DNA of 45,009 nucleotides from the NCBI GenBank assembly GCA_016301865.1, contig JAEDOP010000001.1, positions 1 to 45,009 on the forward strand, read 5' to 3'. Below are positions 2,222 to 15,352 of this stretch, in pieces. The stretch is from Alphaproteobacteria bacterium. Its GTDB lineage: Bacteria > Pseudomonadota > Alphaproteobacteria > Rs-D84. Numbering within the stretch: position 1 is the stretch's first letter; every line of letters begins with the position of its first letter. The translations under genes and the position numbers were made by a program. Under the pieces are notes generated by a model that had not been told where the DNA came from, searched no databases, and worked only from the letters and a program-made list of their open reading frames with translations.

Positions 2222-2263
2222 ACAGTATATTTGCCTACCTTTATTTTTCTATTTACCATACCA

Positions 2264-2297
2264 ACCGGGTCCCGTTGCGAAATGTGGCCCGGTTTTT
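2264..2297 (+). terminator. Intrinsic terminator candidate after the lysis cassette
   Basis: Stem ACCGGGTC / GGCCCGGT (one G-U pair) followed by TTTT. Confidence 0.5.
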
Positions 2298-2390
2298 CCG
2301 TTTCATCACGGATTTCGCATTTTTAGGCCGTTTTTAGCACGTTTCCCGCTCCGGGTGGTACAAGTTATCGTCCGGACCGTAAAAGTGTCT

Positions 2391-2399
2391 TAAATCGAA
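2391..2399 (+). promoter_or_regulatory. TAAATCGAA box, copy 1 of 3
   Basis: The same 9-mer with similar flanks (..aaaaataac) occurs at 5588-5596 and 13681-13689. All three copies are intergenic. Confidence 0.4.
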
Positions 2400-2454
2400 G
2401 AAACGCAAAAAATAACTTATTTTGGCCCGAACTTGAAAAAATATAGAAAAAACT

Positions 2455-2548
2455 TTTGGAAATTAAAAATAAATGACTACCTTTGTGCCGTGGTTGATAT
2501 GACAACCCGACGGACGCGGCCGGTTCCGCGATTAAAACAATAACAGTT
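2455..2548 (+). promoter_or_regulatory. Promoter plus structured-leader cassette A
   Basis: TTTG at 2455-2458, 19-nt spacer, TAccTTTG at 2478-2485. Hairpin 1 is GGTTG/CAACC (2492-2507). Hairpin 2 is CGCGG-CCGGTT-CCGCG (2515-2530). The ATG is at 2549. Confidence 0.6.
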
Positions 2549-2782
2549 ATGGCAACGTTAAAATACACTACCCGCAAAATTAACCACAATTACAAAATCA
2601 AGGTTTACGGCCTGTACAATGGCAAAAAGGTTAATACGCTTGTTGGCGTTTCCGGGTTCCTTAAAATGGTCAACGATATTGAACTTTGCAACCGTCTTTT
2701 GGACCGGGCATTTGCTTCGATGAATGATAAATGTGTATGCAAATTGCGCCGTGGTTTGAAGATTTCGTTTTACGTTGCTTAA
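2549..2782 (+). CDS. Hypothetical early protein (77 aa)
   Basis: First ORF behind cassette A. No motif recognised. Confidence 0.6.
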   Translation: MATLKYTTRKINHNYKIKVYGLYNGKKVNTLVGVSGFLKMVNDIELCNRLLDRAFASMNDKCVCKLRRGLKISFYVA

Positions 2783-2794
2783 TTTTCCCGAATT

Positions 2795-3010
2795 ATGAAA
2801 GCGATAACCCGTAACGCGATTGGCACGTTTCAAACGATGGCCACAAAGGAAATTAACGGTTTCCGTTTCACGTCTTGGCGTACCCCAGACAATAAGCGTT
2901 TTTTCTTGGCCCCGGCATCCCTCAATTTGAACATCGAAAGATACGGCGTTAATCCCGACCAATACGAAATTTCGTATGTTCTTTTGGGTCAGTTAAATAT
3001 GGTTCGATAA
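2795..3010 (+). CDS. Hypothetical protein (71 aa)
   Basis: ATG ORF in the co-directional array. No motif recognised. Confidence 0.5.
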   Translation: MKAITRNAIGTFQTMATKEINGFRFTSWRTPDNKRFFLAPASLNLNIERYGVNPDQYEISYVLLGQLNMVR

Positions 3011-3089
3011 TACCCGGCGATAACCCTTGTTCCAAATTTTTTCGAAAAGTAACAACGGGCCGGAAAATCGGCCTATTAAAACAACAAAT

Positions 3090-3332
3090 ATGACACGGAC
3101 AAAATTTCAATTATTAGCGATGGGCGCAATGATTATGGCGACGGCAAACGATAAACAGTTATTCGACACGGGGACGTCCAAAGTTTACGTCAAGCCCATA
3201 TCCAGAACGGATTTGCCACGTTGGGACGTAAACGGGGCGGTCATTTACGCAACGGATGAAAAGACGGCTACTAAATACGCGAAGAAACGCGGTTTGTGGC
3301 GGCCCGGAACGATTGTTAAACCAATTAAATAA
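3090..3332 (+). CDS. Hypothetical protein (80 aa, hydrophobic N-terminus)
   Basis: The first ATG is chosen within track ORF 3027..3332, which begins at a TTG. The N-terminus LLAMGAMIMATA looks like a signal or TM segment. Confidence 0.5.
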   Translation: MTRTKFQLLAMGAMIMATANDKQLFDTGTSKVYVKPISRTDLPRWDVNGAVIYATDEKTATKYAKKRGLWRPGTIVKPIK

Positions 3333-3338
3333 ACAGAT

Positions 3339-3572
3339 ATGCAAAAGTACAGATTTTCCAACCCGGCATCATCGGTCGTTGAGGTTTCGAAAAGCCCGTT
3401 GGACCGTCCGGAACCGGGCAACCGTTACACGATTTTCGATTGTCTTTGCCGCCCTTTAGGCCGGAAACAAGGGCCGCACAAGAAATACCAAGTAACCGCG
3501 ATAACACCGGCGGCGGCTGCCCGGATAGCGATTGAGAATTACCGAAAGGATTATGGCCAAGAAATCAAGTAA
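3339..3572 (+). CDS. Hypothetical protein (77 aa)
   Basis: ATG ORF in the co-directional array. Confidence 0.5.
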   Translation: MQKYRFSNPASSVVEVSKSPLDRPEPGNRYTIFDCLCRPLGRKQGPHKKYQVTAITPAAAARIAIENYRKDYGQEIK

Positions 3573-3849
3573 AGCGACCCGGGAACAAATGTACCGGGAA
3601 ATATTGGAACAGTCCGGAATCCGGTTTGAGGATTGCAAAGTTTTGGCCTTTGCGTTCAAACAGGAACGGCGGCCCGAACTGTTCCATTTCGGGTTGATGT
3701 TGCACGAACCGCGCCCGGTTTATTACCTGTTCGATTGTTGGGACAAATACGCCAACGTCATTGTCCCGAAAGATGAAAAGAACGCGGCCGTTATCATTGC
3801 CATTGCAGAAAAGGACGGTGGCGAAAAGACAACCCCAAATTTGCGATAA
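3553..3849 (+). CDS. Hypothetical protein (98 aa)
   Basis: ATG at 3553 inside track ORF 3532..3849, whose own start is TTG. Confidence 0.5.
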   Translation: MAKKSSKATREQMYREILEQSGIRFEDCKVLAFAFKQERRPELFHFGLMLHEPRPVYYLFDCWDKYANVIVPKDEKNAAVIIAIAEKDGGEKTTPNLR

Positions 3850-3850
3850 G

Positions 3851-4408
3851 ATGGAAACAAACCAAATCATTGATGAATTAAAGGCCGTGGCGGGATTGGA
3901 ATGGAACCCAGAACAAAAAGCGTTTTACAAACAGAGGGCGGCCGACGCCCGGGTGGTTGAATGTGTGCTGATGCGGGACGTGTTCACGCCGGACCAAATG
4001 GAAATGTTATTTAAGAACATCGGGTACAAAACGCAACAAAAAATGTGTTATAAGAATGCGGCCCAATTGGTTGAATGCGTCGAATGGATGACCGGGCATT
4101 ATGACCCGAACATACCGCCCGTTAAATATGTTGAGGGTTACGCGTATTATAACGGCCTATTGCCAATTGAACACGCATTTGTCAAGATTGGGGACAAATA
4201 CATTGACCCAACGTTTGAACGGGCCTTGCATCGGGACGTTCGCAAAGAAATGTACGTGTCTTGCATCGAATTGGACCCGGAAACGATGGCACGTTACCAA
4301 GTGGAAACCGGCTTTTACGGCGAACTGTACCTGTATGATTATATGTGCAAGAATCAGCCGGAATTGGCCGCACGAATCCGGTCGAGGAATCAGCACAACA
4401 GGCAATAA
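3851..4408 (+). CDS. Transglutaminase-core-like / papain-fold Cys-His-Asp protein candidate
   Basis: ATG at 3851 lies directly after the previous stop. The pattern MCYKNAAQLVE ... IEHAFVKIGDKYIDPT has the spacing of a Cys...His-A-F/W...Asp transglutaminase-like core. Confidence 0.35.
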   Translation: METNQIIDELKAVAGLEWNPEQKAFYKQRAADARVVECVLMRDVFTPDQMEMLFKNIGYKTQQKMCYKNAAQLVECVEWMTGHYDPNIPPVKYVEGYAYYNGLLPIEHAFVKIGDKYIDPTFERALHRDVRKEMYVSCIELDPETMARYQVETGFYGELYLYDYMCKNQPELAARIRSRNQHNRQ

Positions 4409-4484
4409 AAAACCACACCCGGCGAACCGGGTGCGGCGGTCAAAATACCGTGGAGGGCGATACGGGTAAAAAGACACGGCAAAG

Positions 4485-4527
4485 ATAGGGAATTTCGGCG
4501 AAATACGCCAATTCCCTATTTCTTTTT
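4485..4527 (+). terminator. Intrinsic terminator
   Basis: 10-bp stem ATAGGGAATT / AATTCCCTAT with an inner GGCG/CGCC extension, followed by TTCTTTTT. Confidence 0.7.
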
Positions 4528-4640
4528 GATTCTTACGGGCTTTTTCCTGTATTCGACACATTGATATACGGGTTTCGGTCCGGAATCTTACACCCAGATT
4601 CAAGAAAAATGCACTTTTGTAAAAAAATTAAGAAAAATTT

Positions 4641-4738
4641 TTTGGTTTTAAGAAAAAAGCCCTATATTTGTACCCGGGTTCGATAAAGAAACCCACGGCC
4701 CGGGCCGGTTCCCGGTAAAAATCAACACCAAATACGCA
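4641..4738 (+). promoter_or_regulatory. Promoter plus structured-leader cassette B
   Basis: TTTG at 4641-4644, 18-nt spacer, TAtaTTTG at 4663-4670. Hairpin 1 is GGGTT/AACCC (4676-4694). Hairpin 2 is CCGGG-CCGGTT-CCCGG (4700-4715). The ATG is at 4739. Confidence 0.6.
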
Positions 4739-4981
4739 ATGAAAGCAAAGGTTTCAACGCTGATGGACAACGGAAAGGTAATTAACCATCGCGGATTCGT
4801 GGACGCGGCGAAATGGATTGACGAACGCATTAACTTTTTGTTGACCATCTACAAATTCGATGATTACAAAGTGACAGTAACCGGCAATGTATATCGTTTA
4901 GTTGCGTGGCGCAATGCCGGAAAGCCGGGAACAAATGGCAAGGCTATGAGCGTAACCCACGTTATTACCGTTGTTGAATAG
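4739..4981 (+). CDS. Hypothetical early protein (80 aa)
   Basis: First ORF behind cassette B. Confidence 0.6.
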   Translation: MKAKVSTLMDNGKVINHRGFVDAAKWIDERINFLLTIYKFDDYKVTVTGNVYRLVAWRNAGKPGTNGKAMSVTHVITVVE

Positions 4982-4989
4982 TTAAACCC

Positions 4990-5009
4990 GGGGCCGGGCA
5001 TCCGGCCCC
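4990..5009 (+). promoter_or_regulatory. GC-rich intercistronic hairpin, family copy 1
   Basis: GGGGCCGG-GCAT-CCGGCCCC. The context aacccGGGGCCGGgcaWCCGGCCCCacaa is almost identical at 15353-15372. Confidence 0.55.
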
Positions 5010-5025
5010 ACAATCCAAACCGAAT

Positions 5026-5394
5026 ATGTCCACAAATTATTACAACGAACAGAAACGCCGCAATGGCCGCGTAAACGAAATAAGGTTGAACGGCCGCACG
5101 GCATACATTGCCAATTACCAAGATGAAAACGGCGTATGTTGTTCCAAAATCCGGGAAACAATGGACGCGGCAAACCGGGATATGGAAGAACACGGATACC
5201 ACAAAAAAGGAATCATTGACGAATCCGGATGCGCCCGATACACAATGACCAAACAACAGTTGCAAGACCTGTACAGGGTGTTCGAAAACTTTGTGGCCGA
5301 TTGTACCCAACAGGAATACAACGAAAACAAACAGGCCATAACGGCGGTATATACGCTAATACATAAACACATCAACAACGAAATTTGCAAGTAA
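5026..5394 (+). CDS. Hypothetical protein (122 aa)
   Basis: ATG ORF in the co-directional array. Confidence 0.6.
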   Translation: MSTNYYNEQKRRNGRVNEIRLNGRTAYIANYQDENGVCCSKIRETMDAANRDMEEHGYHKKGIIDESGCARYTMTKQQLQDLYRVFENFVADCTQQEYNENKQAITAVYTLIHKHINNEICK

Positions 5395-5401
5395 CATTGG
5401 C

Positions 5402-5423
5402 CCGGGAATTCCCCGGATTTTTT
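5402..5423 (+). terminator. Intrinsic terminator candidate
   Basis: CCGGG-AATTC-CCCGG followed by ATTTTTTT. Confidence 0.45.
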
Positions 5424-5466
5424 GTATCTTTGTTTCAAATCTGCTCTATTTTATAAAGGATAATGG

Positions 5467-5494
5467 CACGGTTGCGTTGTGAAATGCGGCCGTG
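5467..5494 (+). terminator. Second hairpin / terminator candidate, related to 2264-2297
   Basis: CACGGUUGC / GCGGCCGUG (two G-U pairs) followed by a U-rich tract. The loop shares gttg.gaaatg with the 2264-2297 element. Confidence 0.4.
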
Positions 5495-5513
5495 TTTCCT
5501 TTATGCCCGTATT

Positions 5514-5532
5514 GGCCCATTTCGGGCGATTT
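5514..5532 (+). promoter_or_regulatory. GGCY-ATTT(T)CGGGCGATTT box, copy 1
   Basis: ggcccATTTCGGGCGATTT. Near-identical boxes lie at 26999-27017 (+) and 33902-33920 (-). Confidence 0.5.
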
Positions 5533-5587
5533 GGTGGGCTTTCTCTCGAAAGTGGGCCAACGGACCATCTTTGCGCCAAACGTGCCT

Positions 5588-5596
5588 TAAATCGAA
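5588..5596 (+). promoter_or_regulatory. TAAATCGAA box, copy 2 of 3
   Basis: gccTTAAATCGAAaattcgggaaaattaag; compare 2391 and 13681. Confidence 0.4.
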
Positions 5597-5690
5597 AATT
5601 CGGGAAAATTAAGTTGTCCAAGATTTTTTGACAGCCAAAGACGATTATTTAATGGCCGGAAATAAAACACTAAAAAATTATGAAAATATT

Positions 5691-5786
5691 TTTGGTAATT
5701 AGAAAATAATACCTATCTTTGTATCCGGGTTGAGGAAGCAACCCAACCGACCCGGCGGGTTCCGGGGACAAAAAACGAAAAGAGTT
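5691..5786 (+). promoter_or_regulatory. Promoter plus structured-leader cassette C
   Basis: TTTG at 5691-5694, 19-nt spacer, TAtcTTTG at 5714-5721. Hairpin 1 is GGGTTG/CAACCC (5727-5744). Hairpin 2 is CCCGG-CGGGTT-CCGGG (5751-5766). The ATG is at 5787. Confidence 0.6.
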
Positions 5787-5984
5787 ATGACAACAATTGA
5801 AACTGCCAACCGCACGAAAACAACGTATTTCGTTGAATATATTTGCGACGACATCAACAATACGTATTGGCAATTGGTTCGTTCCCGCGATGCGGCGATA
5901 CTTGCCGCCAACAAAGATTTGAACGATATTTACGCCCATTGCTTCATTTGCGGGATTAACAAACAGGATGTGACGATTTGGTAA
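5787..5984 (+). CDS. Hypothetical early protein (65 aa)
   Basis: ATG at 5787 lies 20 nt after leader hairpin 2. Track ORF 5730..5984 would start inside the leader. Confidence 0.55.
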   Translation: MTTIETANRTKTTYFVEYICDDINNTYWQLVRSRDAAILAANKDLNDIYAHCFICGINKQDVTIW

Positions 5985-5991
5985 ATAACCC

Positions 5992-6011
5992 GGCCCCGCG
6001 CAACCGGGGCC
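5992..6011 (+). promoter_or_regulatory. GC-rich intercistronic hairpin, variant
   Basis: GGCCCCG-CGCAAC-CGGGGCC directly after the stop at 5984. Confidence 0.45.
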
Positions 6012-6025
6012 AATAAGACCCCCGA

Positions 6026-6041
6026 CCGGGCGGATTCCCGG
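6026..6041 (+). promoter_or_regulatory. Promoter-less copy of leader hairpin 2
   Basis: CCGGG-CGGATT-CCCGG, 7 nt upstream of the ATG at 6049. Confidence 0.5.
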
Positions 6042-6048
6042 AACTGTT

Positions 6049-6492
6049 ATGCGATTCAAGATTGACAAAAATTTGAACGTAGTTGCGGCCGAAAAGGTCG
6101 CATCCGTTGAACACGAAACCGTGGCGGTCGAACTTTGCGCCCGTTTCATTGATGCTGGTATGATTGAGGACACGCCCGACAATTGGGGCGAATCTGTATT
6201 GGCGGCAGCCGGAACGCAATACGTTTCCAATGTGTGCGCCGTCTTGGCCGAATACCTGTATGGCGACGAAACCCGTTCCATCCCGGCCGACGTGTTCGAC
6301 GCGTTTTGCGCCCTTACAATCGTGGGCGATGGCGATTGCCCGCATTGCGGCGGCGAATTAAAGTTTATCGAAACAGAGGGCCACGAACTGAAAGATGGCG
6401 ACTATTACACGCCCAATTCATACGAAATTGACAATTACATTTACGAATGCCGTAATTGCGGCGAAACTATTAAAACCGAAAATGAATTATGA
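6049..6492 (+). CDS. Hypothetical protein with C-terminal zinc ribbon
   Basis: CPHCGG ... (40 aa) ... CRNCGE, i.e. two CxxC pairs at the C-terminus. Confidence 0.6.
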   Translation: MRFKIDKNLNVVAAEKVASVEHETVAVELCARFIDAGMIEDTPDNWGESVLAAAGTQYVSNVCAVLAEYLYGDETRSIPADVFDAFCALTIVGDGDCPHCGGELKFIETEGHELKDGDYYTPNSYEIDNYIYECRNCGETIKTENEL

Positions 6493-6719
6493 TGCGAATT
6501 GAACAAGCGATTGCCCGCGCAAAGGAACAGGGCAAAAAGGTATTCAAAAAGGATATTGCGGCCCGTCTTTGGCCGGATTCCACAACGGCCGCCCAACAGG
6601 TAAATATGACGGCGTTGTGTAACGGTGCGACCGCCCGCATTTCCCCGGAATGGGTAAACATAATTTGCGAAATGACCGGATGCACGGCCGATTTCCTGTT
6701 TGGACTATCAAACGAATAA
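6489..6719 (+). CDS. XRE/Cro-like helix-turn-helix transcriptional regulator
   Basis: 76 aa. KKDIAARLWPDSTTAAQQVN...GATARISPEWVNIICEMTGCTADFLFGL fits the HTH_3 pattern including the terminal FLFG. ATGA overlap with the upstream gene. Confidence 0.65.
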   Translation: MMRIEQAIARAKEQGKKVFKKDIAARLWPDSTTAAQQVNMTALCNGATARISPEWVNIICEMTGCTADFLFGLSNE

Positions 6720-6723
6720 GGTT

Positions 6724-6894
6724 ATGAAATACGAAAGTACATTGAATTTGTTTTGGACAATTGTTTGGGGCGTTGTCCTTATCGCGGCAATTGTCGGTAT
6801 CTTCTGGAAAACGGCCGTTTATGCCGTTGCCGTCATTGCGGCGGTTTTCTTTGGTGTGTTTTTACGTGAAGTTATCCGTTTCGCACGGATGTAA
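6724..6894 (+). CDS. Small membrane protein with two TM segments (56 aa)
   Basis: LFWTIVWGVVLIAAIVGIFW and AVYAVAVIAAVFFGVFL. ATG at 6724 is chosen within track ORF 6700..6894. Confidence 0.5.
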   Translation: MKYESTLNLFWTIVWGVVLIAAIVGIFWKTAVYAVAVIAAVFFGVFLREVIRFARM

Positions 6895-6912
6895 TAATAA
6901 AAAGGCGATACG

Positions 6913-8247
6913 ATGAAAGACGAAATGACATTTGACCCGGCGTTGGCCGCATTGGTCGAACCCGAAAAGGAACAGGCGATGGAAATTGCGCCCGGAATGA
7001 CTGTTGAAGAAATCCGCGCCGTGTATTTCAATGCGGATGCGTTGAAAGAACCCGCGTACCGGTTGTTCCAACTCAATTCCGACGGACACCGGTATTATTA
7101 CCGCTTCAACGATGCTGGGGAACCGGAATTTTACCCGTCCGTCACGACGTTGTTAAAACAGGTTATGCCGACCCCGCCCGCCCTGTTGGATTGGATGATT
7201 GCCAACGGCAAGGACGGTTCCGCGGAAAAGCGGGATTTGGCCGCCGCGTATGGAACGTTTATGCACGGCCAATTTGAAACGCTTATTATTAACCGGCGTT
7301 ACGACTTTGATTCCGTCCCGGCCACCTTGTTGACATATATGGAACGGGAAAACTTGCCCGAAAAGGTGTTTGCCGAATGGTTGCCGAAAGTACGAAAAGA
7401 TGTGTTGGCGTTCGCCCAATTCATAAAGGATTGGAACGTAAAGCCGTTGGCCGTAGAAATCGGCTTGTACCATCCGAAATTCCATTATGCCGGTTGCCTT
7501 GACTTGCCGTGCGTTATGACTGACCCGAAAACCGGAAAATCGTTCGTGGCAATTGTGGATTTCAAAAGCGGCCGGAAAGGTTTTTACGAAGAACACGAAT
7601 TGCAATTGCATTTATACCGGGAAATGTGGAATGTCCATTATCCAGAAATGCCGGTTGCCCGTGTGTTCAACTTTTCGCCGAAAGATTGGCGCAAGGCCCC
7701 GACGTACAATTTGAAAGACCAAACGGATTCCGAGAACGCCAAGAAATTGCCGTACCTGTTGGCGTTGGCAACGATTGAGGATGAAAAGCGGGATAACACG
7801 TTGACGATTGTACGCGGCGTTTTGGACCTTGACAAAGGCAAGATTTCCGACAACATCTTGAATTTGTCGTTGGCCGAACTTATCAAGACGAAAGCGGCCG
7901 AAAAGGACGCGCCCGAACAGGCAGCGAAAGCCCCGGAAATTTCCAAAGAGGAAATCGAAATTGCCTTAAAAGCCTTGGGAATTTCTCAGGATGCGCCGGA
8001 ACCCGCCAAGAAAGGCCGAAAACGGGCCGTAAAACGCGCCGAACAGACCGAACCGATAAATTCCCCGTCCGAACCGGAAAAGCCCGTTAAAACGGAAATT
8101 CCGGGAAAATTACCGGATGATGGCGCAATAGACAAATTGCCTTGGGAAAATGAACCGGAATCGGCCAAGCCCGCCGGACCTGCGCCGGAACAGATGGCGG
8201 AACAGGCGGCAAAGGATAATTTGTTAAACGACGAAATCGAACTGTAA
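6913..8247 (+). CDS. PD-(D/E)XK (RecB/Cas4-like fold) exonuclease with a disordered P/E/K-rich C-terminal tail
   Basis: GCLDL ... IVDFKSG ... ELQLHLY matches the D...(D/E)xK...QxxxY nuclease motifs. The last ~130 aa are low-complexity. Confidence 0.6.
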   Translation: MKDEMTFDPALAALVEPEKEQAMEIAPGMTVEEIRAVYFNADALKEPAYRLFQLNSDGHRYYYRFNDAGEPEFYPSVTTLLKQVMPTPPALLDWMIANGKDGSAEKRDLAAAYGTFMHGQFETLIINRRYDFDSVPATLLTYMERENLPEKVFAEWLPKVRKDVLAFAQFIKDWNVKPLAVEIGLYHPKFHYAGCLDLPCVMTDPKTGKSFVAIVDFKSGRKGFYEEHELQLHLYREMWNVHYPEMPVARVFNFSPKDWRKAPTYNLKDQTDSENAKKLPYLLALATIEDEKRDNTLTIVRGVLDLDKGKISDNILNLSLAELIKTKAAEKDAPEQAAKAPEISKEEIEIALKALGISQDAPEPAKKGRKRAVKRAEQTEPINSPSEPEKPVKTEIPGKLPDDGAIDKLPWENEPESAKPAGPAPEQMAEQAAKDNLLNDEIEL

Positions 8248-8248
8248 G

Positions 8249-9136
8249 ATGGCACAACGAACGAAAGATATGTTTACGCGGGATTGGATTATTGAAAATT
8301 CCGTTGATATATTAAGCCGATACGAACCCGGTGTTTTGACAATTCGCGGTTTGCATTATCAATTAGTAAGCCGTGGAATGACAAACGACATTCAACATTA
8401 TAAACGCGTTGTTGCCGCAACCGGTCAAGCCCGTTGGGATGGCGTTATTGCGTTTGACGCGTTTAGTGACCGCGACCGGGCCTTGGCCTGTTCCACATCA
8501 TCCGAATTAACCTATTTGGAAGATGCGGAAGAAATTGCCAAAGAACAGGTCCGTTTGTGGATGACATCATACCACAAAAACCGTTGGGAAAACCAACCAT
8601 ATTATCCGGAAGTTTTCATTGAAAAAAAAGCGTTGGAGGGCGTTTTTTATAAGCCGTGCAAACGTTATGGAATTGCCCTTGGTGCGTGTAAAGGTTATCC
8701 ATCGTTGACGTTCTTACACGATGCCGCAATACGTTTTCGTGCCGCCGCGATGGATGGTAAAATACCAATCATTTTGTATTTCGGCGATTATGACCCATCC
8801 GGCGAAGATATACCCCGGGCGTTAAAGGAAAACATCATAAATTTAGGATGTCCAGATATTGAGGTACGCCGCGTGTGTTTGATGGAAGAACAGGTTTTGG
8901 CGTGGAAATTACCACCCGCACCGGCAAAATTGACCGATTCCCGGACGGCGAATTGGGACGGTTTGGGGCAAGTTGAATTAGATGCCGTAAAACCCGAAAA
9001 ATTGATTTCATTGTTGGATAATGCCGTGGCCGAAATATTCGACGAACGATTGTATTATGAATTGATTACGGCGGAAGAATCGGAACGTAAAATTTTCCGT
9101 GACGATATGAAATATTTTGTTGATAATGAATTGTAA
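8249..9136 (+). CDS. Stand-alone Spo11/Topo VI-A-like protein (5Y-CAP-like plus Toprim; 'Mini-A'-like)
   Basis: R33-G-L-H-Y37 parallels the Spo11 R-x-x-x-Y catalytic tyrosine context. VFIE125KKAL and FGD180YD182PSGEDI match the Toprim E and DxD(P)xG of Topo VI-A. The start lies 1 nt after the exonuclease stop. Confidence 0.55.
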   Translation: MAQRTKDMFTRDWIIENSVDILSRYEPGVLTIRGLHYQLVSRGMTNDIQHYKRVVAATGQARWDGVIAFDAFSDRDRALACSTSSELTYLEDAEEIAKEQVRLWMTSYHKNRWENQPYYPEVFIEKKALEGVFYKPCKRYGIALGACKGYPSLTFLHDAAIRFRAAAMDGKIPIILYFGDYDPSGEDIPRALKENIINLGCPDIEVRRVCLMEEQVLAWKLPPAPAKLTDSRTANWDGLGQVELDAVKPEKLISLLDNAVAEIFDERLYYELITAEESERKIFRDDMKYFVDNEL

Positions 9137-9137
9137 T

Positions 9138-9500
9138 ATGACGGTTAAAGATTTACAAATTGGGTCGCCGGTTTACCGGGTGAAAATAAATTCAATAGAC
9201 GTTTTACGTGTTCGTCTTATTCAGCAAATGAATGATGGGACGCATTCAGTTGGATTGTCGAACGGACTGCGTTGCAATGCCAAGGAAGATGCAACCGAAA
9301 TGCGCAATATCAATTCGTCGGAAACAGTTTGGTATCTCAACATTGAGGATGCCGAATTAGCCCAACTTATGCGCCGTTCCGAACACGTCGAAAACTTGAA
9401 AAAGGCAATGGAAAATGCACAAAACGCGTTTGCCGATGCAATCCAACGTTACGCATTTGCCGAACCGTCAACACCGAAAGAATATGACCTGTCATTGTAG
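9138..9500 (+). CDS. Hypothetical protein (120 aa)
   Basis: ATG directly after the stop at 9136. AT-richer than its surroundings. Confidence 0.55.
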   Translation: MTVKDLQIGSPVYRVKINSIDVLRVRLIQQMNDGTHSVGLSNGLRCNAKEDATEMRNINSSETVWYLNIEDAELAQLMRRSEHVENLKKAMENAQNAFADAIQRYAFAEPSTPKEYDLSL

Positions 9501-9675
9501 CGAACGTTCAAAGAAAATTCCAGAACGTAGATGGAAAATTTTACAATATCACTGCAATTATTCCGCATTTGGTGGATATAGATATAATTATTCCGATTAT
9601 AGTTGTATAAGATGCGAAATTTGTGGTGCGGTTTGGAGAACAAACGCAAAATATGTTGATGAAATAAAACGGTAA
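9484..9675 (+). CDS. Small Cys-rich (zinc-binding?) protein (63 aa)
   Basis: MTCHC ... C ... CIRCEIC. The ATG at 9484 is chosen within track ORF 9415..9675. Confidence 0.45.
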   Translation: MTCHCSERSKKIPERRWKILQYHCNYSAFGGYRYNYSDYSCIRCEICGAVWRTNAKYVDEIKR

Positions 9676-9679
9676 TACT

Positions 9680-10405
9680 ATGCGAGGAAGAATTTACAGA
9701 AATGAACAGGGCGCGGCAATCCTTGAATTGCCCGAAATCGGCCGGTTGCACATCGGCAAAAAACAGATGGGCCAAAACGGCAAGGAATACCCGGTGTCCG
9801 TGGATTATTTCATACCGGCCGGAAAGTATGCCGGGATGTTCACGCAAGCGTTGGGCGATAAGCCGCAAACCATCCAAGTAATATTCCCGGATGATTCCCC
9901 GGAAAAGGTATGCAACGAAAGGTACGAATATCGCGACAATGCGGGTGCATTGGTTGCCAAGGGCGACGGACGGACGTTCGAAATTTGGGACGGCAAAAAA
10001 TACGTTCCATATTCGGTTGATGCTTACCCGGATATTATGGACCAAATCGCAAAGAACAACCCGACCAAGCGCGGGACCGACAACTGGGATATTGTCTTAA
10101 CATTGCGGTTCATTGTCCCGGCCGTCCGGGGAATCGTTGGCGTGTGGCAATTTTCGACCAAGGGCAAGGCATCAAGCGTCCGGAATATCCGGGAATCGTT
10201 CGACGGTGTGCAAATGATGCGCGGAACGGTTACGCAAAGTGTGTTTGATTTATCTGTACAGTTTGCCAAGAGTAACAAACCGGGCGTATCGTCCCGTTAT
10301 CCTGTTGTATCGTTGGTTGCCAACGATACCCGGATTGAGGCAATACGCAAAGCGATTGCACCAACGCAAAATTTGTCGTTACTGTTGCCGGATGGAAAAA
10401 AATAA
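9680..10405 (+). CDS. Hypothetical protein of the recombination/replication module (241 aa)
   Basis: Long ATG ORF. I could not assign a family with confidence. Confidence 0.6.
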   Translation: MRGRIYRNEQGAAILELPEIGRLHIGKKQMGQNGKEYPVSVDYFIPAGKYAGMFTQALGDKPQTIQVIFPDDSPEKVCNERYEYRDNAGALVAKGDGRTFEIWDGKKYVPYSVDAYPDIMDQIAKNNPTKRGTDNWDIVLTLRFIVPAVRGIVGVWQFSTKGKASSVRNIRESFDGVQMMRGTVTQSVFDLSVQFAKSNKPGVSSRYPVVSLVANDTRIEAIRKAIAPTQNLSLLLPDGKK

Positions 10406-10406
10406 C

Positions 10407-10414
10407 TATATTTG
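10407..10414 (+). promoter_or_regulatory. TAnnTTTG (-7-like) promoter motif upstream of the HNH gene
   Basis: TAtaTTTG. A CAACGG/CCGTTG hairpin follows in the leader. There is no clear -33 TTTG. Confidence 0.3.
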
Positions 10415-10517
10415 TGGCAACAAACGTGTGTGGCCGCGCACGAACTGAAATTTAATGCCCTGTAAAGTAAGCCAACGGCGGCCACCGTTGACCGAAATAC
10501 GGGGCGTTTTTGATTTT

Positions 10518-10883
10518 ATGGATTACAGACGACTATATGAAAATCATTATGGCATAACGATTCCGTCGGAATATGAAATACACCATATTGATTTCAACAG
10601 GGACAACAATAACATTGAAAACCTTTTGTTGTTGCCGAAAGATTTGCACCGGAAATTGCATTGGGTCCGGAATACATCTTGCGTAAATCTTGACGGATTT
10701 TTTGATTTCCAAGGAATTGCCGCACAACGTCCAATGGATTACGAACGGCGTTGCATAAATGCCGCGTTGGATGTTTACGACAAATTGCAAATTTGGTCGT
10801 GTCGGAAGAATTGCGAAGATATGAAATTGCATTTTCCCGGATGTGCTAGTTATTATGATTATTCAATTTTTAGAATTAGTTAA
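10518..10883 (+). CDS. HNH endonuclease (free-standing)
   Basis: EIHHIDFNRDNNNIENLLLLPKDLHRKLH is an H-N-H motif. The gene is an AT-rich island. ATG at 10518 is chosen within track ORF 10455..10883. Confidence 0.75.
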   Translation: MDYRRLYENHYGITIPSEYEIHHIDFNRDNNNIENLLLLPKDLHRKLHWVRNTSCVNLDGFFDFQGIAAQRPMDYERRCINAALDVYDKLQIWSCRKNCEDMKLHFPGCASYYDYSIFRIS

Positions 10884-11663
10884 ATGGAAACGCGAACATT
10901 CAAAATTGATAATTACATAACGGTTCCCGGATTCGCTATTGTCGAACTTGGATTGTCTGGGAACGATTTGTTGTGTTATTCGTTGATATACGGATTTACC
11001 CAAGACAAAGAGACCGAATTTCGTGGGTCATTGAATTACGTTGCATCGGCCTTGAACGTGACGAAGCAGAACGCCAAAAAGATTATTGACCGGTTGATTG
11101 ACCGGGGATTGATTGAGAAACGCGAAATGTTCTTTTCCGGCGTGAAATTTTGCCATTATGTCGCAAACAGATACGGCGTTGCTGAAATAGCAACGGGGCG
11201 TTGTCAAAACAACAACGGGGGTGTTGCTGAAATAGCAACGGGGGGTGTTGCTAAAATAGCAACGAATATTGATAATAAAGATAATTCTATTGATAACATA
11301 GAAGATACCGCCGACGGCGTTTTATTCCCGACCGAACCGGCATTTGAAACGGTTACAGTTACCCGGCCGCACCGGACCGCTGAACCGGCCGCGTGTCTGT
11401 TCGAAAATTCCAGGTTCGCTGATTACAATGCGTTTGCCGCCGAATTTACGGCCCCGAAATTTGCGGACGTGGATATTGTGTATTATTACCACGCCGTTGC
11501 CGATTGGTCCGCGCAACACGGGCGAAAAATGAAAGATTGGATTGCAACGGCGCGGAATTTCATTCGTGGCGATATGGAAAAGGGCAAGTTGCACCGGAAA
11601 AGCGGGACCGGGCCGGCATTGTCCCCGGATGCAATCAAATATTTACAAGATATGGCTGATTAA
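10884..11663 (+). CDS. Replication initiator / replisome-organiser-like winged-HTH protein
   Basis: N-terminal LCYSLIYGFTQ...SLNYVASALNVTKQNAKKIIDRLIDRGLIEKRE resembles a wHTH. The gene contains iteron-like DNA repeats internally (11178-11263). Confidence 0.5.
   Translation: METRTFKIDNYITVPGFAIVELGLSGNDLLCYSLIYGFTQDKETEFRGSLNYVASALNVTKQNAKKIIDRLIDRGLIEKREMFFSGVKFCHYVANRYGVAEIATGRCQNNNGGVAEIATGGVAKIATNIDNKDNSIDNIEDTADGVLFPTEPAFETVTVTRPHRTAEPAACLFENSRFADYNAFAAEFTAPKFADVDIVYYYHAVADWSAQHGRKMKDWIATARNFIRGDMEKGKLHRKSGTGPALSPDAIKYLQDMAD
11174..11305 (+). repeat. Iteron array plus AT-rich tract (candidate replication origin)
   Basis: The palindromic 17-mer GTTGCTGAAATAGCAAC occurs at 11178-11194, 11223-11239 and 11247-11263 (the last as GTTGCTAAAATAGCAAC), with a degenerate copy near 11201. 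An AT-rich stretch follows with TATTGATAA twice (about 11267 and 11289). Confidence 0.55.
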
Positions 11664-11666: not shown

Positions 11667-12566
11667 ATGGAACAGAACAACAACCAAATTGCCGTCCGGC
11701 CGGTACAGAAAACGGCCGTTATGATACGCCGGGAAATGGTCAAGATTCCCGCCGTTATGGGAGCGTTGGGACCTGTTGAAAGGGCCGTGTTTCTTGCGTC
11801 CACGGCGAAAACCATTGCCGAATATAACGCCGCCGAACTTTCCGCCGAATTGGCCGTGGCCTTGAAATGGATTTGCAAAGATGTTGGGTACAGGTCCCCG
11901 GATGAAAGCGACCGCCAATATTTGGTAATACGGACCGCCGAAATACTGAAACGGTATTATACCGGTTTAACGTTAAAGGATTTCCGGATGGCTTTCGAAA
12001 TGAGCATAACCGGAGAATTGGATGATTTCTTGCCGCGTGGACGCGATGGCCAACCCGACCGGAACCATTACCAACAATTCAACGCTGAATATGTTTGCAA
12101 GATTTTGAACGCATACAAAGGCCGCCGGGCGTGGGTATTGAGGAAAGCACATGAAGCGGTCCCGAAAGAAGAACCCAAACCGGACCCAGAACGCGAAAAG
12201 TATTACAGAAACGAAACCCGGAAAGGATGTATCAAGGCGTTCGAATCATTCAAGGAAAACCGCCGGTTGCCCGAAATGTCGCCAATTGACGAAATGTTAT
12301 ATTACAACGAATTGGCTGCCGTCGGGCTTGCTGATGAAATCGAAATTACATTGGCCGACCAAAAGGAAATTTTGCAACGCACAATCAACGATTACGCCCG
12401 GCGCGGATATATCGGCGACGTTCGCCGGTTAAAGGAATCTGGAACCGACGACCCGGAATTGAAACACGGTTCGTTCGTATTGGCCCGGCGCAAGGCGTTG
12501 AAAGCCGCATTTGCCAAGATGGCGGCCAACGGAATTAACATAACGGATTATATCAAATTAGACTGA
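11667..12566 (+). CDS. Hypothetical protein, replication module (299 aa)
   Basis: Long ATG ORF immediately downstream of the initiator. No motif recognised. Confidence 0.6.
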   Translation: MEQNNNQIAVRPVQKTAVMIRREMVKIPAVMGALGPVERAVFLASTAKTIAEYNAAELSAELAVALKWICKDVGYRSPDESDRQYLVIRTAEILKRYYTGLTLKDFRMAFEMSITGELDDFLPRGRDGQPDRNHYQQFNAEYVCKILNAYKGRRAWVLRKAHEAVPKEEPKPDPEREKYYRNETRKGCIKAFESFKENRRLPEMSPIDEMLYYNELAAVGLADEIEITLADQKEILQRTINDYARRGYIGDVRRLKESGTDDPELKHGSFVLARRKALKAAFAKMAANGINITDYIKLD

Positions 12567-13324
12567 TGGAAAAGCCGTGTACGACGTGCCGATATGGTCA
12601 AAAACAATTCATACAAAGGCCACGGCCGGACAAATATTTGTATGAATTACACAACGTTTACGCAGGAATTATTTGCACTAAATACAACGGTCCGTTTGGG
12701 CGGGATTGCCAAGATTACAAAAATTGGCGTGTCATTCAAAGGGCCGAAAAATTACAACGAAAGATGGAACAGAAAATTAAGATTTCGGCGGTTATTGGGA
12801 TTGACCCGGGAAGCAATGGCGGTCTGGCGGTATTCATTCCGGGCCAAAACGTCAAGGTCGTAAGGATGCCGAAAGACATTACCGAATTGCGGGATTTATT
12901 CGCGTATTACAACGACAATTTCAAACCGATTGTGTTTCTTGAAAAATTGTCCGTCCGGCCCGATGATGTTATGGTACAGGGCGACCGGGCCGCAATGGGA
13001 AAGTTGTACAGGATACAAAAGATGATGGCCAATTTTGAACACTTGAAAGCCCTAATTGAAACGGCCGGAATCCCGTATGTATTGGTTCATCCTCTTTCGT
13101 GGCAAACCAAATTGAAATTGAGGGTACGCGGCCAACACGAAGAAAAGGCCGACCGGAAACGCCGTTACAAGGAAGCGGCCGCGCAATATTACCCGGGCGT
13201 CAATGTTACGTTATGGAACGCGGATGCCCTGTTGTTAATGCATTTTGGACGTTGGGCGTTGGTCAATGAACCGAAATGGGTAAAGGCGAATTTGCCGGAA
13301 CGTGAATACCTAAAATTATTTTGA
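12566..13324 (+). CDS. RuvC-like Holliday junction resolvase
   Basis: VIGIDPGSNGGLAV (Asp motif), VFLEKL (Glu) and NADALLLMHFG (DA motif) fit the RuvC fold. The N-terminus carries CTTC. Confidence 0.65.
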   Translation: MEKPCTTCRYGQKQFIQRPRPDKYLYELHNVYAGIICTKYNGPFGRDCQDYKNWRVIQRAEKLQRKMEQKIKISAVIGIDPGSNGGLAVFIPGQNVKVVRMPKDITELRDLFAYYNDNFKPIVFLEKLSVRPDDVMVQGDRAAMGKLYRIQKMMANFEHLKALIETAGIPYVLVHPLSWQTKLKLRVRGQHEEKADRKRRYKEAAAQYYPGVNVTLWNADALLLMHFGRWALVNEPKWVKANLPEREYLKLF

Positions 13325-13325
13325 A

Positions 13326-13652
13326 ATGCCGACCAAGATATTTACGACCATAACCGGCCCGTGTCCGTTCGGAAAGAACGTAACGATTGATACCCCGGGT
13401 TGCCGGTCGTGCGAATACTTTTACAGGACCGGAACCGGGATGTTCTTCTGGTGCAACAATCCCGTTCCAAAATTGGAAGAATCCGTGCTAAAATCCGGCG
13501 AAAGTGTACCGAAAACGACTAAAAATGTTCCAGAGACACGGAAACGCGTACCCAAAACCACAAAATCGGGTACAGAACCCAAGAAACGAGGACGCCCGGC
13601 CGGAAAGGCCGAAAAGAAGCCCGTAAAGACACGCAAAAAGAAAAATGGATAA
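13326..13652 (+). CDS. Cys-rich N-terminal domain plus basic tail with an AT-hook (DNA-binding protein candidate)
   Basis: CPFG..C..C...C at the N-terminus. The tail reads VPKTTKNVPETRKRVPKTTK..KKRGRPAGK, which contains an RGRP AT-hook core. Confidence 0.5.
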   Translation: MPTKIFTTITGPCPFGKNVTIDTPGCRSCEYFYRTGTGMFFWCNNPVPKLEESVLKSGESVPKTTKNVPETRKRVPKTTKSGTEPKKRGRPAGKAEKKPVKTRKKKNG

Positions 13653-13680
13653 GTTGTACCAAGACGGGCCAAAATGCCCG

Positions 13681-13689
13681 TAAATCGAA
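13681..13689 (+). promoter_or_regulatory. TAAATCGAA box, copy 3 of 3
   Basis: cccgTAAATCGAAaatttggcaaaaataacg, preceded by the hairpin ACGGGC/GCCCGT (13664-13681). Confidence 0.4.
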
Positions 13690-13741
13690 AATTTGGCAAA
13701 AATAACGCCCGGTTGTTGGAGACACCAAAATTGTTTGATTT

Positions 13742-14146
13742 ATGAATTTTAAGTATAAAATAGCACGTTATTTATGTGGGACGTTGCAAACGTCGGACAT
13801 TTCATTTACTAAACGAAATGCCGCCGAAAATTGTATAAATGGACAGGTAAACCCGCAACAATGGTTTATACTGAAATTGGGCGGATTGAAAGATATTTGC
13901 GCGAGGGCGGTAAAGAAATACGGCAAAGAATCACAAAAGCGGATGGCAATTGAAGAAACGTCCGAATTGATAAACGCATTAATGAAAGAAACACGGGGCC
14001 GTGTTACTGATGCCGATATAATAACGGAAATAGCCGACGTGCAAATTATGATGGAACAATTATCTATCATATACGGTTATGAAGAGGTAGCAAGGGAACG
14101 AGAACGTAAGTTGGAACGATTAGTTGCACGAATAACCAATGGTTAA
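13742..14146 (+). CDS. mazG: MazG-like nucleotide pyrophosphohydrolase
   Basis: RMAIEETSELINALMKE ... ITEIADVQIMMEQL matches the EExxE...ExxD MazG helices. Confidence 0.6.
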   Translation: MNFKYKIARYLCGTLQTSDISFTKRNAAENCINGQVNPQQWFILKLGGLKDICARAVKKYGKESQKRMAIEETSELINALMKETRGRVTDADIITEIADVQIMMEQLSIIYGYEEVARERERKLERLVARITNG

Positions 14147-14330
14147 TGTTTGTATTCATCGCGACCCATACGGAGCGTACCGGGTATTTTGCAAGCGTGC
14201 CAAATACAAACATTGGCACGAATTAGGAAAACACCGGGAAACCGACGCGGCGTTTGAACAGGCATTGGCGGCCGGAACGGTTGTCTGGTTGCCGAAAATC
14301 ATTGAACCGCCAACGTTGTTTGAAAAATAA
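14139..14330 (+). CDS. Hypothetical protein (63 aa)
   Basis: The ATG overlaps the end of the MazG gene. Confidence 0.5.
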   Translation: MVNVCIHRDPYGAYRVFCKRAKYKHWHELGKHRETDAAFEQALAAGTVVWLPKIIEPPTLFEK

Positions 14331-14341
14331 ATGAAAAAAGT

Positions 14342-14435
14342 TTTGGTAATTAAAAATAAATACTTACCTTTGTATCCGGGTTGAGGTTACAACCCGACGG
14401 CCCGGGCCGGTTCCCGGATATAAAACTAATGAGTT
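14342..14435 (+). promoter_or_regulatory. Promoter plus structured-leader cassette D
   Basis: TTTG at 14342-14345, 19-nt spacer, TAccTTTG at 14365-14372. Hairpin 1 is GGGTTG/CAACCC (14378-14395). Hairpin 2 is CCGGG-CCGGTT-CCCGG (14402-14417). The ATG is at 14436. Confidence 0.6.
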
Positions 14436-14669
14436 ATGAAAGCAAAGGAACTTAAAAACGGGACGTACACAATTAGCGGTATTACCAAAGAAGAAATTAT
14501 TGCGATGGCCGATTATATGGCGTTTGCTGAAAGAGCCGAACACGGTTATATGCACAATGTTGAGGAAATGCGCAAAAGGATTGACGAAATACGCGAAAAT
14601 GGGACTACCGAAAAAATATATATGATGGAATTTTTATTTCGTTGTATGGCAAACGATTTGAGGAAATAA
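14436..14669 (+). CDS. Hypothetical early protein (77 aa)
   Basis: First ORF behind cassette D. Confidence 0.6.
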   Translation: MKAKELKNGTYTISGITKEEIIAMADYMAFAERAEHGYMHNVEEMRKRIDEIRENGTTEKIYMMEFLFRCMANDLRK

Positions 14670-14674
14670 GGAAT

Positions 14675-14748
14675 TGCGTCGTAGTGTAACGGTAACACCC
14701 AAGTTTTTGGCACTTGTATTCCCCGTTCGAATCGGGGCGGCGCAACCA
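14675..14748 (+). tRNA. tRNA-Gln (anticodon TTG), CCA encoded
   Basis: Hand-folded cloverleaf. Acceptor TGCGTCG/CGGCGCA (one G-U pair), D arm GTGT/ACAC, anticodon stem CAAGT/ACTTG with loop TT-TTG-GC, T arm CCCCG-TTCGAAT-CGGGG, discriminator A, then CCA. Confidence 0.8.
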
Positions 14749-14756
14749 AAAAAAAT

Positions 14757-14838
14757 ACCCGTGTGGCGAAATGGTAGCCGCGCAACACTCAAAATATTGT
14801 ACCGTAATGGTGTGCCGGTTCGAATCCGGCCACGGGTA
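14757..14838 (+). tRNA. tRNA-Leu (anticodon CAA), long variable arm
   Basis: Acceptor ACCCGTG/CACGGGT, D region TGGCGAAATGGTAGCCGCG (Leu-type), anticodon loop CT-CAA-AA, variable arm ACC-GTAAT-GGT, T arm GCCGG-TTCGAAT-CCGGC. Confidence 0.8.
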
Positions 14839-14848
14839 CGAAAACGGA

Positions 14849-14864
14849 CCGGGCCGATTCCCGG
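14849..14864 (+). promoter_or_regulatory. Promoter-less copy of leader hairpin 2 directly after tRNA-Leu
   Basis: CCGGG-CCGATT-CCCGG, 21 nt upstream of the ATG at 14886. Confidence 0.5.
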
Positions 14865-14885
14865 AAACATAAAACCAAATGTCTT

Positions 14886-15341
14886 ATGATGGACACGAAA
14901 AGATTTCAAAAGTATTACCAATCCGGGCCGCATTTCCGGATTGAGAACCCGAACCCGTGTTGGGCTGAAAAACGCGGCTTAAAATGGGACCGTGGCGATT
15001 GCGCCATACGTGCGTTGGCCAACGCCATTTCCTGTTCGTGGGTCGAATCGTTCGAATACTTGACCGCCAAGGCCCGCCGGGATTTCAACGTACCGAATGA
15101 CGGCCCCGGATTCCGCCGTTGGTTGATTGAGGGCGGCGCGGCTTGGACCCATTGCTCGGCCGTCAAGGGTAAATCCCGAATGACCGCGAAACAGTTTGCG
15201 GAAACGCACCCAACCGGCCGTTATGTCATTACGGTTGCATCCCACGAAACCGCGTGTGTTGATGGTGTTATTCTGGACGCGTGGAATTGCGGAGAAAAAG
15301 CGGTTGTCGGTTATTTCGATATGTCGAATTTTAAGTTATAA
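14886..15341 (+). CDS. Papain-fold Cys-His(-Asp) enzyme candidate (151 aa)
   Basis: RGDCAIRALANAI ... YVITVASHETACVDGVILDAWN has a nucleophile Cys at a helix start and a downstream His/Asp, as in cysteine-peptidase-like folds. Confidence 0.35.
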   Translation: MMDTKRFQKYYQSGPHFRIENPNPCWAEKRGLKWDRGDCAIRALANAISCSWVESFEYLTAKARRDFNVPNDGPGFRRWLIEGGAAWTHCSAVKGKSRMTAKQFAETHPTGRYVITVASHETACVDGVILDAWNCGEKAVVGYFDMSNFKL

Positions 15342-15352
15342 TTCATTAACCC

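Follow-up and report, generated by a model that had tools for sequence, protein, structure and literature searches.

The window treated here is a stretch of 45,009 nucleotides (nt) at the start of contig JAEDOP010000001.1. It is the genome of a tailed phage, a siphovirus of Bacteroidota that resembles PDS1 and TCUEAP2 and carries every gene on the plus strand; our subject is the gene at positions 8249-9136 of that strand. It starts with ATG and encodes 295 amino acids (aa) of a stand-alone protein that resembles subunit A in topoisomerases of type IIB; judged by its motifs, it belongs to the subfamily called Mini-A. An N-terminal winged-helix/5Y-CAP-like domain (residues ~10-105, nucleotides 8276-8563) holds R33 (cgc, 8345-8347) and the putative catalytic Y37 (tat, 8357-8359). 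It is followed by a Toprim domain (residues ~118-230, 8600-8938) with E125 (gaa, 8621-8623) and the motif D180-Y-D182-P-S-G185 (8786-8803), of which the aspartates are encoded by gat at 8786-8788 and gac at 8792-8794. Then comes a T2BI box, Q241-V-E243-L-D-A-V247 (8969-8989), a variant of the Mini-A signature xWELDAL; in it, E243 is the residue that putatively forms a clasp with R33. A C-terminal helical hairpin (residues 249-294, 8993-9130), which is seen in AlphaFold2 (AF2) models, does not align with Top6A.

The open reading frame (ORF), its length and the motifs had been pointed out in an earlier note on this DNA, and all of them can be read directly from the sequence: R33-G-L-H-Y37, I124-E125-K126 and F178-G-D180-Y-D182-P-S-G185 are present in the translation, and the Toprim glutamate, said to lie about 90 residues past the tyrosine, follows it by 88. 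The ORF is a real gene, since a first homologue search yielded 1,983 homologues of the protein, the nearest being 98% identical. The gene is tightly packed. The stop of the exonuclease ORF upstream (TAA, 8245-8247) is separated from the ATG at 8249 by a single G at 8248, and the stop of the Mini-A gene itself (TAA, 9134-9136) is followed by the next ATG at 9138, again after 1 nt. The junction with the exonuclease thus exists as described earlier, but it is not special: the gene downstream is spaced likewise, so the 1-nt distance reflects operon packing and is not specific to the exonuclease/Mini-A junction.

The Mini-A subfamily of type IIB topoisomerase A-like proteins (Topo mini-A) was defined by Takahashi et al. 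in 2020 (PMC7671362), and its first discovery relied on Topo VIII queries. By that definition a Mini-A is encoded by a virus, measures about 300 aa and consists of 5Y-CAP and Toprim domains only; it has a conserved arginine, a catalytic tyrosine, the Toprim glutamate and DxDxxG, and a B subunit is absent nearby. The T2BI box separates the subfamilies, reading xWELDAL in Mini-A, R/KxExxA/S in Topo VI and RVELNAM in Topo VIII (PMC7671362). The window protein presents the same picture. It comes from a phage, has 295 aa that AF2 arranges as two domains plus the helical hairpin, and carries the R/Y pair, the Toprim glutamate with DxDxxG and a T2BI box. Pfam, NCBIfam and PADLOC reveal no ATPase domain fused to it, and scans of the window's ORFs with Pfam or PHROGs yielded no GHKL/Top6B protein, in line with the earlier statement that a Topo VI-B partner is missing from the window.

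Among the PHROGs, the protein matches phrog_6247, "DNA topoisomerase", over residues 29-290 (E 3.7e-56). The best 120 of the 1,983 homologues are at least 69% identical to it, and the "DNA topoisomerase" of the Elizabethkingia phage TCUEAP2 is 71% identical. By tblastn, homologues occur in 84 deposited phage genomes, many of them annotated as "(putative) DNA topoisomerase". The hosts comprise Pseudomonas (NP1/PaMx25 group), Salmonella (Chi-like), Xylella, Xanthomonas, Brevundimonas, Roseobacter, Flavobacterium, Cellulophaga, Microbacterium, Listeria and one haloarchaeon; Listeria, Pseudomonas and Salmonella are also named in PMC7671362. The homologues from phages of Listeria, Pseudomonas, Salmonella, Xylella, Brevundimonas and Microbacterium share 28-36% identity with the window protein over 80-95% of its length. 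A profile search puts the family at no less than 7,889 clusters at 50% identity with E<=1e-3, or 811 with E<=1e-30, mostly of ~300 aa.

Conservation was judged in two samples. An alignment of 59 sequences, the window protein and diverse homologues of 28-86% identity, has xWELDAL as its consensus at the T2BI box; R33, Y37, E125, D180, D182, P183-S-G185 and E243-L-D-A246 are invariant in it. A wider count covered 240 diverse family sequences. There, R33, Y37, E125, K126, D180 and D182 are each kept in 240 of 240, as is G185 when counted with DxDxxG, and E243 in 237. The tyrosine and the DxD pair, whose loss among homologues the earlier note had named as a refutation, are therefore fully conserved. 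The window protein deviates at two places. At position 36, where 200 homologues have Y, 20 H and 20 F, it belongs to the minority with H, and at position 242 it has V, as do 59 homologues, while W is found in 166. Its T2BI string QVELDAV is thus non-canonical, with the E-L-D-A core kept and W->V and L->V exchanged. The PHROG match and the xWELDAL consensus bear out the view that this is a stand-alone 5Y-CAP plus Toprim protein of the Mini-A kind without B subunit. As far as sequence can assign it, the protein is a new Mini-A member that falls in a subclade from Bacteroidota phages and shows R-G-L-H-Y and Q-V-E-L-D-A-V as its variant motifs.

The relation to Top6A and Spo11 is more difficult to see. 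Reference profiles were built from Top6A/Spo11 sequences taken from the PDB and from a homologue search. When the N-terminal domain is compared by hhalign, LTIRGLHY37 pairs with STLRELYY106 of Top6A (P 7e-4), which places R33/Y37 on R102/Y106; the score of 25.0 compares with 11.7 +/- 3.1 for column shuffles, and none of 100 shuffles reaches it. The Toprim domain scores 26.6 against 12.1 +/- 2.2 for its shuffles, and again 0 of 100 come up to it. In full-length comparisons with the small and medium Top6A profiles, E125 is paired with E202 of M. mazei and D180/D182 with D254/D256 (P 0.004-0.06). At the C-terminus the T2BI boxes stayed unaligned (P 0.057), and E243 is therefore matched with E342 by motif and position only. 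The match begins at Top6A residue ~84; by this alignment the window protein is devoid of the N-terminal segment that binds the B subunit in Top6A. Pfam TP6A_N weakly matches 2 of the 59 family members (best E 1.3e-3, below the curated threshold). True Top6A proteins match PF21180, PF20768 and PF04406; the window protein does not reach curated-threshold membership of either TP6A_N (PF04406) or the TOP6A-Spo11 Toprim family (PF21180).

Structure prediction depended on the alignment used. A shallow alignment gave a poor N-terminal domain and a well predicted Toprim half; a deeper one gave a predicted local distance difference test score (pLDDT) of 86 and a predicted template modelling score of 0.64. 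In the deeper-alignment prediction, the N-domain helices 11-22, 32-40, 48-64 and 90-105 have a pLDDT >90, the Toprim domain shows beta-alpha topology with E125 at the end of strand 1 (118-124) and DxD after strand 3 (172-178), and the C-terminal helices 249-263 and 266-294 reach ~90. When the model from the shallow alignment was searched with Foldseek against 350,542 PDB chains, M. mazei Top6A came first (9o8p_A) and second (9o7o_A); the match concerns the Toprim half. A search of the structure database BFVD returned only a PDS1-like fragment and weak matches to Toprim and primase proteins.

Several observations weigh against a Top6A-like enzyme and have to be set beside this evidence. Pfam (E<=1), NCBIfam and PDB sequence searches with the window protein gave no match, and hidden Markov model profiles of the family found nothing in the PDB at E<=10. 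The full-length hhalign probabilities were low, 1-9%, which was the reason for splitting the comparison by domain and adding column-shuffle controls. The 9o8p_A match is marginal (E 4.9e-3, probability 1.0, 179 columns) and comes from the model of lower confidence; with the model of pLDDT 86, the 50 best Foldseek hits included neither Top6A nor Spo11 nor JetD, and no hit reached E<=1e-3. The two models may disagree because of the arrangement of the domains or because of the N-terminal domain. The histidine in place of Y/F before the tyrosine and the valine in place of the T2BI tryptophan point in the same direction, and the literature searched contains no biochemical or genetic study of any Mini-A. 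The checks against Top6A, Spo11 and JetD proposed in the earlier note have thus turned out mixed: domain-wise hhalign and the shallow-alignment model speak for the relation, whereas the better model and the Pfam, NCBIfam and PDB searches do not. Neither outcome that the note had named as a refutation has come about. Its description of the Toprim signature as identical in form to that of Top6A holds for the motifs, which pair in the domain-wise alignment, but the homology is far more remote than the wording suggests, the curated searches being empty. On balance, the alignments support a remote homology of both domains to Top6A in the correct catalytic register.

What such a protein might do can be derived from Topo VI. 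According to the cryo-electron microscopy of the M. mazei enzyme (2026, PMC13040014), Y106 makes the 5'-phosphotyrosine and E202, D254 and D256 bind metal; R102 and the T2BI glutamate E342 form a clasp that holds the tyrosine off the Toprim site, and the E342Q mutant hyper-cleaves. R33, Y37, E125, D180, D182 and E243 line up as the putative Mini-A counterparts of these active-site and clasp residues, with the reservation on E243 given above. Mini-A would accordingly work as a homodimer that cuts DNA with Mg2+. Y37 would become joined to the 5' phosphate of the cut DNA, the R33-E243 clasp would restrain cutting, and the break could be resealed. The absence of an ATPase gate makes ATP-driven strand passage unlikely. 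Mini-A might then be regarded as an ATP-independent break-and-rejoin enzyme, not as a strand-passing topoisomerase. With low certainty, one may imagine that phage or host DNA is its target early in infection, where it would change or relieve topology or make controlled breaks, and, equally uncertain, that it does so independently of the replication mode of the phage. The literature searched offers no biochemical characterisation of any Mini-A, so that we infer cleavage, covalent adduct, dimerisation and religation alike. Mini-A probably cleaves and rejoins DNA via a tyrosine link.

The gene upstream, at 6913-8247, encodes a PD-(D/E)XK exonuclease of 444 aa, as had been proposed; it is recognised by Pfam PDDEXK_1 (E 2.2e-5, above the cut-off) and by phrog_298, "exonuclease" (E 3.4e-30). 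Its C-terminal tail of ~170 residues (~275-444) lies outside the nuclease-domain match and is of low complexity, rich in acidic residues, proline, alanine and lysine. Whether the two genes belong together was judged from the neighbours of 85 Mini-A loci, which were clustered into families. About 45 distinct immediate neighbourhoods were seen, and across the 85 loci there is no conserved partner (a "Mini-B") and no neighbour family common to all contexts. The PD-(D/E)XK exonuclease lies directly upstream of Mini-A in 3 of them, the window and two loci with Mini-A copies 98% (L089) and 82% (L097) identical to the window's. Where the copy is 80% identical (L098), the order is exonuclease, Gp3-like gene, Mini-A. 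A DnaQ-like exonuclease and an acidic-tailed protein of 229 aa flank Mini-A in TCUEAP2, PDS1 and 23 IMG/VR contigs; in phages of this type the distance from Mini-A to the PD-(D/E)XK gene is ~9 kb. The Mini-A of Pseudomonas phage NP1 has a ligase on one side and the annealing protein Sak4 on the other. The adjacency is an accident of one narrow lineage and not a conserved pairing. A RecN/SbcC-like ATPase was also considered as a partner and rejected, because PDS1-like phages have it in their backbone whether or not they carry Mini-A, and tblastn did not detect it in other Mini-A phages.

The Mini-A gene itself moves. Copies of 65-82% identity occupy other slots and unrelated phage backbones. 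In Mu-like transposable phages, copies of 70-75% identity lie just downstream of the repressor, in the order S24 repressor, small ORFs, Mini-A, rve transposase, MuB-like ATPase and GemA. Early operons of Mu-like phages (L095/L096, ~3580-10888) contain a Mini-A 70% identical to the window's, and more distant copies of 58-62% identity sit in Mu-like early operons as well (L125/L127/L159); the genes on one side of Mini-A there are repressor/Ner-like, those on the other the rve transposase, MuB-like ATPase and GemA. One further copy lies ahead of a gene for a DnaG-type primase of 1,314 aa. The window still has both flanks of the PDS1-type slot, 54% and 49% identical to those of TCUEAP2; between them, that is between the DnaQ-like exonuclease and a 206-aa acidic-tailed protein, there is just a spacer of 213 nt (19367-19579), from which it follows that Mini-A changed slots among related phages. 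A possible ORF of ~65 aa starts at 19370 within this spacer.

Presence among close relatives is patchy. The window's RecN-like ATPase has a homologue of >40% identity in 12 cultured phage records, and among these Mini-A at >=60% identity is found only in TCUEAP2, AS73P1, C1_85S2P, BKO1-3 and PDS1; the loci fetched from PD482P1 and PD691P3 contain no gene of Mini-A size. In the Parabacteroides phage PDS1 (L002, 9001-9887), a deletion of 1 nt falls inside the E125-K-K-A codons, and the reading frame is annotated as two genes, a "DNA topoisomerase" and, for the C-terminal half, a "DNA primase". Either a viable phage carries a pseudogene here, or the deposited sequence contains an error. About 10 metagenomic copies are frameshifted at differing positions, for which sequencing error is likewise possible. 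The slot of the Parabacteroides phage PD491P1 is taken by a C5-cytosine DNA methylase instead (L177, 5715-6767; PF00145, E 5.9e-46), between flanks 93% and 99% identical to PDS1 genes, while another locus (L110) has Mini-A and a methylase (5872-6723) side by side in the same slot, which looks like a hot spot of cassette exchange. At a further locus (L146, 6596-7381), a homologue of Acb3, an inhibitor of the defence system CBASS, lies two genes downstream of Mini-A (PF25187, E 3.3e-31). Patchy presence, frameshifts and replacement by a methylase show Mini-A to behave like an accessory gene that can be exchanged, not like part of the replication core. The most fitting view is that of a mobile accessory gene, located in early and replication/recombination regions, with which phages can dispense.

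These findings also bear on what the protein is for. The earlier note had suggested that Mini-A cuts DNA and the co-translated exonuclease resects the ends, for recombination-dependent replication or for destruction of host DNA. The 1-nt junction in the window and its 98%- and 82%-identical relatives is compatible with such a pair, as are the recombination genes of a window in which no polymerase, primase or helicase was detected, and some other Mini-A copies have annealing proteins or nucleases nearby (Sak4 and a Cas4-like exonuclease in NP1, elsewhere a weak Rad52-like neighbour). Yet two genes that adjoin each other in 3 of 85 loci, stand in another order where the copy is 80% identical and lie 9 kb apart in PDS1 and TCUEAP2 do not look like a functional unit, and the suggestion is not supported. 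The copy of 70% identity in Mu-like phages fits it equally badly, since such phages require intact host DNA and do without a recombination-primed start, and close relatives keep the exonuclease while Mini-A is missing, frameshifted or replaced. A 5'-phosphotyrosyl adduct blocks exonucleases that depend on a 5' end; ends bound by Spo11 need endonucleolytic clipping. On general grounds, then, the adduct would hinder and not feed an end-dependent 5'-to-3' exonuclease. We consider the pair quite unlikely. Another proposal makes Mini-A an initiator that nicks the phage origin and stays on the 5' end, like the HUH initiators of rolling-circle replication. It was made for the skuldviruses of Asgard archaea by Medvedeva et al. 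(bioRxiv 10.1101/2021.07.29.453957) and again in a 2026 preprint on a Lokiarchaeon virus, in both cases for viruses without any other replication protein, and the tyrosine/5'-link chemistry would be suitable. The window, however, already has a replication-initiator-like gene (10884-11663), and some phages that carry a homologue themselves encode a primase, helicase, polymerase or Mu-type transposase, which makes the role unlikely here. An essential start function also fits poorly with a gene that is absent, frameshifted or replaced in close relatives, and a scan of 2200-6100 and 13600-15400 found no repeat or origin-like structure. Of the roles weighed here, this one appears the least probable.

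The chemistry may be doubted, too. Mini-A could be a purely hydrolytic Toprim nuclease or a non-catalytic DNA-binding protein of JetD, OLD or primase type, in which the tyrosine is structural or contacts DNA and is not a nucleophile. PADLOC finds JetD3 in 12 of the 59 family members, some UniRef homologues are named "DUF2399", the weak BFVD matches are to Toprim and primase proteins, and phage annotators have used "DNA binding protein" for one homologue and "DNA primase" for the C-terminal half of the PDS1 protein. An R-x-x-x-Y that is invariant in 240 of 240 sequences and aligns with R102/Y106 of Top6A is hard to reconcile with this, as is the conservation of the clasp-position glutamate (237 of 240, unaligned by hhalign); moreover, the JetD match covers just ~38 residues at DxD, and zinc-binding, primase polymerase or ATPase domains are not detected. 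We regard this possibility as very unlikely. Somewhat more may be said for a factor of counter-defence or host takeover, a cassette gene whose product changes the DNA of host or phage or disturbs host defence of the Toprim/SMC type. The C5-methylase that stands in for Mini-A in PD491P1 and beside it in L110 would agree with it, and so would the Acb3 gene of L146, the recurrence of nucleotide-modification genes nearby (PAPS-reductase-like, dGTP diphosphohydrolase, ThyX), the place that the gene takes in temperate contexts, on the lytic side and just downstream of the repressor, and the patchy distribution of 65-82% identical and sometimes frameshifted copies over unrelated backbones. Yet this is an argument from location, made without statistics among neighbours that are mostly unannotated; phage methylases and morons gather in any variable slot, a mechanism is not evident, and PADLOC yields only weak matches to the JetD motif. 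In its full form, an exchangeable cassette that shares its slot with orphan C5-methyltransferases, has further anti-defence genes nearby and uses controlled, tyrosine-linked breakage for counter-defence or host takeover, not a replication enzyme, we find it unlikely; altered DNA topology or ends might, if it were true, make a host surveillance system fail. Our own reading, which we hold to be rather likely as a whole, is that Mini-A is a mobile accessory protein that breaks and rejoins DNA by a clasp-regulated tyrosine/Toprim mechanism and has no conserved partner.

The rest of the window can be described briefly. Megablast of its first 25 kb found no match among known phages. An endolysin gene lies at 1026-1619. 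The early replication/recombination block comprises the exonuclease, Mini-A, a Gp3-like gene, an HNH gene, the initiator-like gene, a RuvC-like resolvase gene (12566-13324), a MazG-like gene, two tRNAs, the RecN/SbcC-like ATPase (15389-16807, AAA_15/AAA_23, ~6 kb from Mini-A) and the DnaQ-like exonuclease (18503-19366). The 120-aa ORF directly behind Mini-A (9138-9500) has no Pfam match or family and is absent from the 98%-identical relative L089, where the Gp3-like gene follows Mini-A directly. In the window the Gp3-like protein (PF18897, E 5.9e-31) is encoded at 9680-10405; its gene directly follows the exonuclease in relatives, the two being adjacent in TCUEAP2 and L098. The scanned ORFs contain no recognisable catalytic subunit of a DNA polymerase, primase or helicase, just as had been noted before; genes of initiator-like, DnaQ-like, RuvC-like and RecN/SbcC-like type are present. 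The two tRNAs, tRNA-Gln(ttg) and tRNA-Leu(caa), lie at 14675-14839, behind the MazG-like gene and ahead of the RecN-like ATPase; a tRNA-Gln(ttg) is also found in Alistipes phage AS73P1. Apart from them, the repeat scan mentioned above showed just short two-copy repeats at chance level. HNH endonuclease genes occur four times (10455-10883, 16864-17484, 20200-20628 and 35173-35802), two of them with NUMOD4/NUMOD1 motifs; in place of the one at 10455, L089 has a PAPS-reductase-like gene. Packaging and structural genes include TerS, TerL, portal and tape measure. The large terminase (24482-26998) is unusually long with 838 aa: terminase profiles match three separate stretches, and an inserted region (residues ~50-290) matches primase and helicase-loader profiles, which points to an intein or some other insertion. 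In PDS1 the annotation splits the terminase into two coding sequences.

Mini-A is one of three branches of type IIB topoisomerases and Spo11, the sole one that works without an ATPase subunit, and it is very common in phages, with thousands of sequence clusters. Publications of 2019/2020 had already described and named the family, with its motifs, its distribution among viruses and the missing B subunit, and the databases already say "DNA topoisomerase". What is added here is modest: a member with variant motifs, the conservation of clasp and active site, the mobility between slots, the replacement by a methylase and the occurrence in Mu-like phages. The six kept residues of active site and clasp suggest, by analogy with E342Q of Top6A, an E243Q mutant that might hyper-cleave. 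Mobility, dispensability and methylase replacement narrow the plausible roles, and pairs of PDS1-like phages from Bacteroides and Parabacteroides, one having Mini-A and the other lacking it, would be informative to compare.

Comparison with known systems places the protein as follows. With JetD/MksG of Wadjet, which the earlier note had named as a relative, it shares a Toprim DxD region of Topo VI-A-like flavour, and there is a weak PADLOC match to JetD3 (E 9e-4; best in the family, 5.8e-4). The match is, however, confined to residues 168-205, some 38 residues around DxD; JetA, JetB and JetC are absent from the window, and Mini-A has neither a JetABC/SMC operon nor the N-terminal domain of JetD, while it does have the invariant R/Y pair. 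Pfam, NCBIfam and PADLOC detect on it neither a zinc-binding or RNA-polymerase domain of DnaG type nor an ABC ATPase of OLD/GajA type. Topo VIII, which is plasmid-borne, is likewise a type IIB A-like module on a mobile element, but its GHKL-transducer half, fused or split, and its T2BI box RVELNAM are both missing from the window protein. With Topo VI-A and Spo11 (M. mazei Top6A, PDB 9O8P; M. jannaschii, 1D3Y), Mini-A has in common the order of the two domains and, by hhalign, the residues R33/Y37, E125 and D180/D182 at the places of R102/Y106, E202 and D254/D256. It differs by the lack of a GHKL partner and of a TP6A_N or Toprim match above threshold and by its extra C-terminal hairpin, and the relationship becomes visible only in profile-profile comparison. 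To the published Mini-A proteins it corresponds in its ~300 aa, its stand-alone and phage-encoded nature, the shortened 5Y-CAP domain with R-x-x-x-Y, the Toprim glutamate with DxDxxG and the T2BI box; it departs from them in QVELDAV, where they have xWELDAL, and in H36, where Y or F is usual.

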